Below, piece by piece: positions 49,281 through 50,675 of a stretch of DNA of 64,000 bases (the stretch's first letter is position 1; each line of letters begins with the position of its first letter). The notes under the pieces are model-generated. The model was not told the DNA's origin. It made no database searches and saw only the letters and a program-made list of their open reading frames with translations. The DNA lies in the NCBI RefSeq assembly GCF_024223415.1, contig NZ_CP100500.1, one strand, 5' to 3'. This DNA is from Escherichia coli (GTDB lineage Bacteria > Pseudomonadota > Gammaproteobacteria > Enterobacterales > Enterobacteriaceae). Both the position numbers and the translations under genes were made by a program.

Positions 49281-50675
49281 TTAATCGTGAGCGCCGATTT
49301 CGCGCAGTTTACGACCTTTCATCAGATTACGTTCAATATGTTCCAGCGAAACGTGTTTGGTTTCCGGTACCAGCCACAATGTCAGCAGGATAAACAGTAC
49401 GTTCAGAGCCGCGTACACCCAGAAGGTGTTGGCGTTACCCAGCGTGTTGAGCATGGTCAGGAACGTTGCGCCAACGATCATGTTGGCAATCCAGTTGGTG
49501 GCGGTGGAGCAGGTGATGCCAAAATCGCGGCCTTTCAGCGGCTGAATTTCGGAGCACAGTACCCAAATCAGCGGACCGGCACTCATGGCAAAACCGACAA
49601 TAAACATCAGCAGCATGGCGATGGCGAAATACTGCGCCGACGGAGAGTGGATACCGATATGCATCATTGTACCGAGTACGCCCATACCAGCAGCCATCAC
49701 CAGGAAGCCCAGCGTTAGCGTTGGTTTACGTCCCCAGCGGTCAACAAGGCCGATTGCGATAAAGGTGGCAAGTACGTTGGTCAGGCCGACAATCACTGTC
49801 CCCCACATTTGCTCGGTAGTGTTGGTATAACCCGCCAGTTAGAAGATTTTCGGCGCGTAATACATGATGACGTTCATCCCGGTGAATTGCTGCATTACCT
49901 GTAACAGTACGCCAAGGAACACCGCGCGGCGGAAGTTGCTATTCTCTTTAAACAGCGCCCAGCCACTCTGTTTAACCTGCAAACTTTCACGGATTTCATC
50001 CAGTTCGCGTTTCGCTTCCGCGCTGGTGTCACGCAGGCGTAGCAGCACGCGTTCGGCATCAACAAAACGGCGTTTGGCGGCAAACCAACGTGGGCTGTCT
50101 GGCAGGAAGAAGACACCAATCAGCAGCAAAATTGCCGGGATGATAATCACACCCAGCATCCAGCGCCATGCACCGGTGTAGCTGAAGGCGGTATCAGAAA
50201 GATAAGCACCGAGGATCCCGATAGTGATCATTAACTGATACATCGAGATCATACTGCCGCGAATTTTTTCCGGCGCAATTTCAGAGAGGTACAGTGGTGC
50301 GGTATAAGAGGCCACACCTACCGCCAGCCCCAGCAGAACGCGGGAAAGAATCAGTACTTCAACGTTTGGCGCAGCCGCAGAGAACAGCGAACCGGCAACA
50401 AACAAAATTGCGCCGATCATCAGGCTCTTTTTGCGCCCGAGTTTAAAGGAGAGCCAGCCGCTGCCCACCGCACCGACTGCCGCACCGAACATCATGGAGC
50501 TTACGACCCATTCTTGCGTGTGCGAAGTAATCTGGAATTCATCTGCAATAAACGGCAGTGCGCCAGCAATTACACCGATATCCAGGCCAAAGAGTAATCC
50601 CGCCAGAGCGGCAAGGAAGCAGACGAAAAACGTCATTGCCTTGTTTGACCGCCCCTGTTTTTTAGCGTCAGGCAT
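49281..50675 (-). pseudogene. galP: galactose:H+ symporter GalP interrupted by an in-frame TAA (ochre) codon
   Basis: two collinear track ORFs (49839..50687 and 49281..49808) in the same frame, separated by TAA at minus-strand 49841..49839; together they span full-length GalP. Confidence 0.8.

Follow-up and report, generated by a model that had tools for sequence, protein, structure and literature searches.

The galactose permease gene of this Escherichia coli strain is, as read from its sequence, a nonsense-mutated galP pseudogene that fits the PGAP "internal stop" class. In the window, by which we mean the whole 64-kb stretch of DNA analysed, galP occupies the minus strand from an ATG at 50675 to its native TAA at 49283..49281 and lacks an uninterrupted 12-TM reading frame, an in-frame TAA standing at codon 279, between TM7 and TM8 (Table 1). 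We consider it very probable that this allele, E279*, is a genuine, recent and spontaneous nonsense null of a dispensable gene, and one of many such galP lesions.

Around the premature stop at 49841..49839 the minus strand reads ...GCG CCG AAA ATC TTC TAA CTG GCG GGT TAT..., and the list of open reading frames resolves the gene into two collinear ORFs of the same frame, 50675..49839 and 49808..49281, which bears out the arrangement given in the preliminary description of this DNA, namely two ORFs in one frame split by a single ochre codon. The first ORF encodes 278 aa when counted from the ATG at 50675, or 282 aa from an upstream TTG at 50687, while the second encodes 175 aa and starts at Met290, 30 nt past the premature stop. 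The truncated product amounts to 278 of the 464 residues, or 59.9% of full length, in line with the truncation to about 60% proposed earlier.

By identity, synteny and profile, the sequence comparisons identify the locus as the GalP orthologue. The window protein has the same amino acid as K-12 GalP (b2943) at 463 of 464 codons, with E279* as the sole difference, and the gene, compared base by base, departs from the intact 14EC033 galP (WP_001112301.1) of E. coli at exactly one position in 1395 nt: a G-to-T change at gene nucleotide 835 (window 49841) that converts codon 279 from GAA to TAA. The gene order metK-galP-yggI(sprT)-endA is collinear with that of 14EC033, NCTC10444 and K-12. When searched against the TIGR00879 sugar-porter profile, residues 7-278 align to profile positions 47-339 (310.7 bits) and the C-terminal part aligns to positions 342-510 (181.7 bits), so the matches on the two halves are collinear. 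These same comparisons uphold the earlier naming of the gene as galP and its reading of the lesion as a single-base nonsense mutation, GAA to TAA being the only nucleotide change relative to the intact 14EC033 gene. The preliminary description gave a glutamate (GAA) at this position in K-12 and named its absence as one finding that would refute the claim; codon 279 of MG1655 b2943 is indeed GAA. Chance is not at issue, since the in-frame stop lies in an otherwise 100% protein-identical conserved orthologue and the TAA-containing 61-mer centred on the stop has no perfect match among 5,414 matching complete RefSeq E. coli genomes.

Table 1. Features of the galP locus (window coordinates) and position of the analogous K-12 allele.
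Feature	Position	Strand	Remarks
galP (galactose:H+ symporter) pseudogene, native ATG to native TAA	49281..50675	-	1395 nt; 1 difference from 14EC033 and NCTC10444
Premature ochre TAA, codon 279	49839..49841	-	mutated base 49841: A on +, T on gene strand; G in intact alleles
N-terminal fragment, 278 aa, TM1-6 + cytoplasmic loop + TM7	49842..50675	-	predicted from hydropathy; protein = SRA13732.1
Remnant C-terminal ORF M290-D464, 175 aa + stop, TM8-12, probably untranslated	49281..49808	-	ORF list, SD/hairpin analysis
Native galP Shine-Dalgarno GGAGGG, intact	50680..50685	-	region identical to NCTC10444 (intact galP)
Apparent galP control region, unchanged	50739..50773	-	read from sequence
GalR/GalS-operator-like palindrome GTGTAAGCGATTACAC	50773..50758	-	putative, presumed consensus
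CRP-like TGTGA-N6-TCACA	50754..50739	-	putative, presumed consensus
K276* galP	NZ_CP009644.1 3072384-3073778		K-12 haplotype

The hydropathy profile places TM7 at approximately residues 252-278 and TM8 at approximately residues 293-311, and the alignment of full-length GalP to sugar porters of solved structure (GlcP 4LDS, XylE 4GBY, GLUT1/3) extends to residue ~450. On this predicted topology the stop lies within the periplasmic loop joining TM7 to TM8, and everything from TM8 to TM12 is cut off. The product would lack these helices and could not form the C-terminal six-helix bundle, so family architecture argues strongly that E279* abolishes the transporter and is a null allele. The gene is presumably still transcribed, its promoter, operator and Shine-Dalgarno sequence being unchanged; from 49842 to 50937 there are no differences from NCTC10444. 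Within the control region, the putative sites at 50739..50773 are ones that we take to be for GalR/GalS and CRP from the known consensus sequences of these regulators. A linked regulatory change was considered for the SNP at 50938, 263 nt upstream of galP, and was rejected, as the variant is private to NCTC10444 and the window carries the common allele. Just downstream of the galP stop, at 49247-49272 on the minus strand, lies a GC-rich perfect inverted repeat, GGCTTCCTCC...GGAGGAAGCC, with no T-run after it; this repeat may be a terminator or a REP-like element.

The chromosomal background in which the mutation sits is well represented among complete genomes. From 28423 to 64000, the window is collinear with NCTC10444, the two differing over 35.6 kb by 10 SNPs and by no indels, and the same collinear background is found in O78 strain 3, NCTC9112, KV7 and GPEC1446, the nearest complete genomes. 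In all five of these relatives galP is intact and codon 279 is GAA. Outside galP, the SNPs relative to NCTC10444 comprise the missense differences L383F in SpeC (window 30862) and F83I in YggR (window 44125), a pair of synonymous and a pair of intergenic differences, and three more at the junction of the tRNA-Phe island. The mutation therefore appears recent, since galP has no second lesion and the intact NCTC10444 differs by only these 10 SNPs. A G-to-T change is also the signature of mutY deficiency, and mutY lies within the window; a mutator origin was nevertheless rejected, because the window mutY is identical to the NCTC10444 copy and the other SNPs include none of the G-to-T type and thus no excess of that class.

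Two further features of this background were observed. An IS3-family IS1397 copy at ~57129-58477, between speB and loiP, shows no differences from NCTC10444, O78 strain 3, NCTC9112 and KV7 and marks the O78-like lineage group. To the left of tRNA-Phe (28429-28504, a pheV-type site), in window 1-28422, the match to NCTC10444 stops, and that genome has a different integrase-bearing island. The island in the window is a mosaic: ~3500-11680 matches Mu-like prophage genes (Gam, DDE transposase, ExeA, DUF2786), ~11680-19980 matches a myo-inositol (iol) catabolism and sugar ABC transporter cluster with IS2/IS3 elements, and in no complete E. coli genome is more than 37% of 3500-28400 found at a single location.

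A single-base change found in no complete RefSeq E. coli genome could be suspected of being a sequencing or assembly error in a strain that really carries GAA, and the preliminary description had entered this caveat. The caveat is answered by the presence of the same allele in independent assemblies. Contig UDHK01000032.1 of GCA_900482235.1 matches the window at every base over 12,837 bp, the TAA included, and the exact 278-aa product is on record from it as SRA13732.1, adjoined by the 175-aa remnant SRA13734.1. With a length of only 37.6 kb, this contig cannot be the source of the window, which must stem from a different assembly of that clone. The Logan assembly of SRR19977205 is likewise identical to the window over 11,755 bp with the TAA, the same contig occurring in four samples (this run and three further ones), and the Logan assembly of SRR19977217 carries the TAA and a single additional SNP over 6.1 kb, so that at least two members of the clone can be told apart. 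It is implausible that substitution errors would produce the same stop in independent data sets, and the recurrence of the allele together with its flanks in GCA_900482235.1 and in the independent run assemblies establishes it as real rather than an artefact; we regard an error as extremely unlikely and this explanation as effectively refuted already. An in-sample G/T polymorphism was also considered for five partial matches (L006-L011), contigs that end at codon 278, and rejected: L007-L009 end just before nucleotide 835, and L006 and L011 end in "GA". These matches are contig-end background rather than evidence, since our control shows that any truncation length collects ~20-60 contig-end partial proteins.

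Given a real stop, GalP activity might still be rescued if translation re-initiated at Met290 and the N-terminal seven-helix and C-terminal five-helix fragments assembled in the membrane as a two-piece permease. In favour of such an arrangement, the break lies in a periplasmic inter-helix loop and an in-frame ATG occurs within 30 nt of the stop, and split fragments of LacY reportedly assemble in the membrane, in experiments of Bibi and Kaback and of Zen et al. The likeness to LacY lies in the position of the break, an inter-helix loop of a 12-TM MFS transporter, and it remains a resemblance only: each LacY fragment had been supplied with separate expression signals, whereas the second galP ORF has no Shine-Dalgarno sequence. 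The best anti-SD pairing at the Met290 ATG is -2.2 kcal/mol, compared with -9.8 kcal/mol at the native start, and this ATG ranks 18th of the 27 in galP for such pairing and is buried in a predicted hairpin of -17.5 kcal/mol. This weak pairing and the hairpin leave a functional split permease unsupported, and nothing suggests that the codon is more than the nearest chance ATG. Ten loop residues would moreover be lost, and the arrangement is conserved in none of the 5,414 genomes, being a one-step derivative of intact genes. With no initiation signals of its own, the second ORF does not belong among natural split MFS permeases, and we judge rescue by this route very unlikely. Full-length GalP could alternatively be made if an ochre suppressor tRNA or programmed readthrough decoded the stop, and the +4 base is C, a weaker context for UAA termination. 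A search for a suppressor tRNA within the 64-kb window found none, the only tRNA there being a normal tRNA-Phe(GAA), and we assume that the tRNA genes elsewhere in the genome include none either. UAA being the stop codon that E. coli uses most, ochre suppressors carry a cost and are seldom met in natural isolates. The stop, absent from every other complete genome compared, bears no recoding signature; it is not conserved and the nearest relatives have GAA, so the site does not fall among programmed readthrough or recoding sites. Readthrough thus strikes us as vanishingly improbable, and the evidence continues to favour a simple null allele.

The E279* change is not confined to the clone represented by the window. 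A locus from SRR8931301 carries the TAA allele and is identical to the intact STEC-like 2015C-3163 over 11,711 bp except for the codon-279 base, and a locus from SRR31122240 carries it with two bases differing from the intact XDL in 11,714 bp, one of them the codon-279 base. Any two of the three E279* haplotypes are separated by 50-78 SNPs per 5.6 kb. SNPs that tell them apart flank the stop, at 61 bp on the upstream side and at 23-44 bp on the downstream side, and this speaks against spread of the allele by recombination. As the SRR8931301 and SRR31122240 loci are each only 1-2 bases in 11.7 kb away from a complete genome with intact galP, the parsimonious reading of these sequences is that E279* arose independently at least three times. 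Other disrupted galP loci that carry the 175-aa remnant, which come from E. coli/Shigella-type public assemblies and represent independent lesions, include E288* (SRR8466196), L183* (ERZ28648103), a Mu-like prophage inserted near nucleotide 843 (ERR13115098), and 1-bp indels at nucleotides 796, 801, 812 and 843 (GCA_900447905.1, GCA_946404725.1, SRR25033214 and CP026824.1). Some of these indels may reflect assembly errors, since they fall in short homopolymers of G or T. Apparent extra lesions in three further loci (L018, L019 and part of L014) were discarded as runs of N, that is, scaffold gaps and not mutations. Overall, galP is repeatedly inactivated in E. coli, in many ways and in many strains.

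This recurrence might reflect positive selection for losing GalP, for instance because cells thereby keep out a toxic sugar or analogue or, where the Leloir pathway or LPS is defective, escape galactose toxicity; or codon 279 might be a mutational hotspot. The identical G-to-T change on three haplotypes, with recombination disfavoured by the flanking SNPs, and the many other independent galP lesions speak for such a cause. Against it, hundreds of thousands of E. coli runs are public, so that any tolerated nonsense change is expected to recur. The gene offers 113 possible single-base nonsense changes, spread over 87 codons. As a control, we looked for ten other truncations of this kind, with stops at codons 208, 220, 230, 244, 259, 262, 272, 276, 283 and 288: every one of them is on record, and the 31 contigs for E279* fall inside their range of 1-118 contigs each, counts that consist mostly of random contig-end partial proteins and are not rigorously comparable as allele frequencies. 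The K276* allele described below is, in the genomes identified at least, a laboratory-lineage allele, and the window clone has no mutator signature, its mutY being identical to that of its relative and its 10 SNPs showing no G-to-T bias. The recurrence of E279* is not a hotspot signal, and the allele is inconspicuous among those of galP. We therefore regard selection or a hotspot as an unlikely explanation of the recurrence, and it seems similarly doubtful that galP is a recurrent adaptive loss-of-function target in natural E. coli, such that losing a low-affinity galactose/glucose:H+ symporter would be advantageous in some niche. A tolerated spontaneous null remains the preferred reading.

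Among the closest known alleles is K276* (AAA to TAA), present in the galP of K-12 ER2796 and ER3413, in seven "K-12 MG1655" derivative records (CP010438-CP010444), and in many sequencing runs (148 index blocks). In RefSeq it carries a pseudogene annotation with an "internal stop," and the paper describing the ER2796 genome (PMC4444293) also lists the truncation. Like E279*, it is an ochre mutation of the same gene, three codons upstream, and would leave 275 aa and the identical 175-aa M290-D464 remnant; the two differ in the change itself, A to T in codon 276 as opposed to G to T in codon 279, and in their setting, K-12 laboratory lineages as opposed to a natural O78/NCTC10444-like background. 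Users of the K276* strains (ER2796, ER3413 and CP010438-CP010444) work with a galP-null background. E279* itself is already deposited in GCA_900482235.1, whose 278- and 175-aa products are identical to those of the window and are annotated as two separate "galactose-proton symporter" CDSs. Gene absence is also on record, as galP is missing from Yersinia, Dickeya and Sodalis (PMC3119520). These other disruptions and absences resemble E279* in that the low-affinity galactose/H+ symporter is gone and other uptake routes are left, and they differ from it in lesion and lineage. A literature search for galP nonsense, pseudogene and premature-stop alleles returned nothing on E279*. The allele is nonetheless already known in kind and in instance, since the exact allele is deposited and the analogous K276* is published.

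The sequence of events that we propose begins with a spontaneous and recent G:C-to-T:A transversion that would have turned Glu279 (GAA) of galP into an ochre codon in one O78/NCTC10444-like clone. Translation would end after TM7, yielding a product without nearly all of the C-terminal six-helix bundle, which is expected to form half of the sugar-binding cavity, as in sugar-porter MFS transporters. The gene is probably transcribed, and the 278-aa stub is likely made and then degraded. The allele would persist because GalP is dispensable: the high-affinity MglBAC system could still import galactose and the PTS glucose, a redundancy that we assume for this strain, as mglBAC and galETKM lie outside the window. 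The cost would be only slower growth at high galactose, as described in the literature for K-12 and extended here to the window strain. In MG1655, a ΔgalP mutant grows on 0.3% galactose because Mgl remains, reaching stationary phase ~200 min later (PMC3119520), and several enterobacteria lack galP altogether (PMC3119520). On these grounds the phenotype is expected to be mild, and E279* would join the many other galP nulls that segregate in E. coli.

E279* is thus a genuine but unremarkable loss-of-function allele of a dispensable transporter. For annotation, the locus should be recorded as a galP pseudogene (internal stop) and not as two "galactose-proton symporter" genes. Uptake of galactose and glucose in this strain should depend on MglBAC and the PTS, and growth at high galactose should be slower; the allele provides a handy clone marker for its O78/NCTC10444-like sublineage. 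The wider point is a modest one: the repeated inactivation of galP in E. coli merits a population-genomic test for selection.
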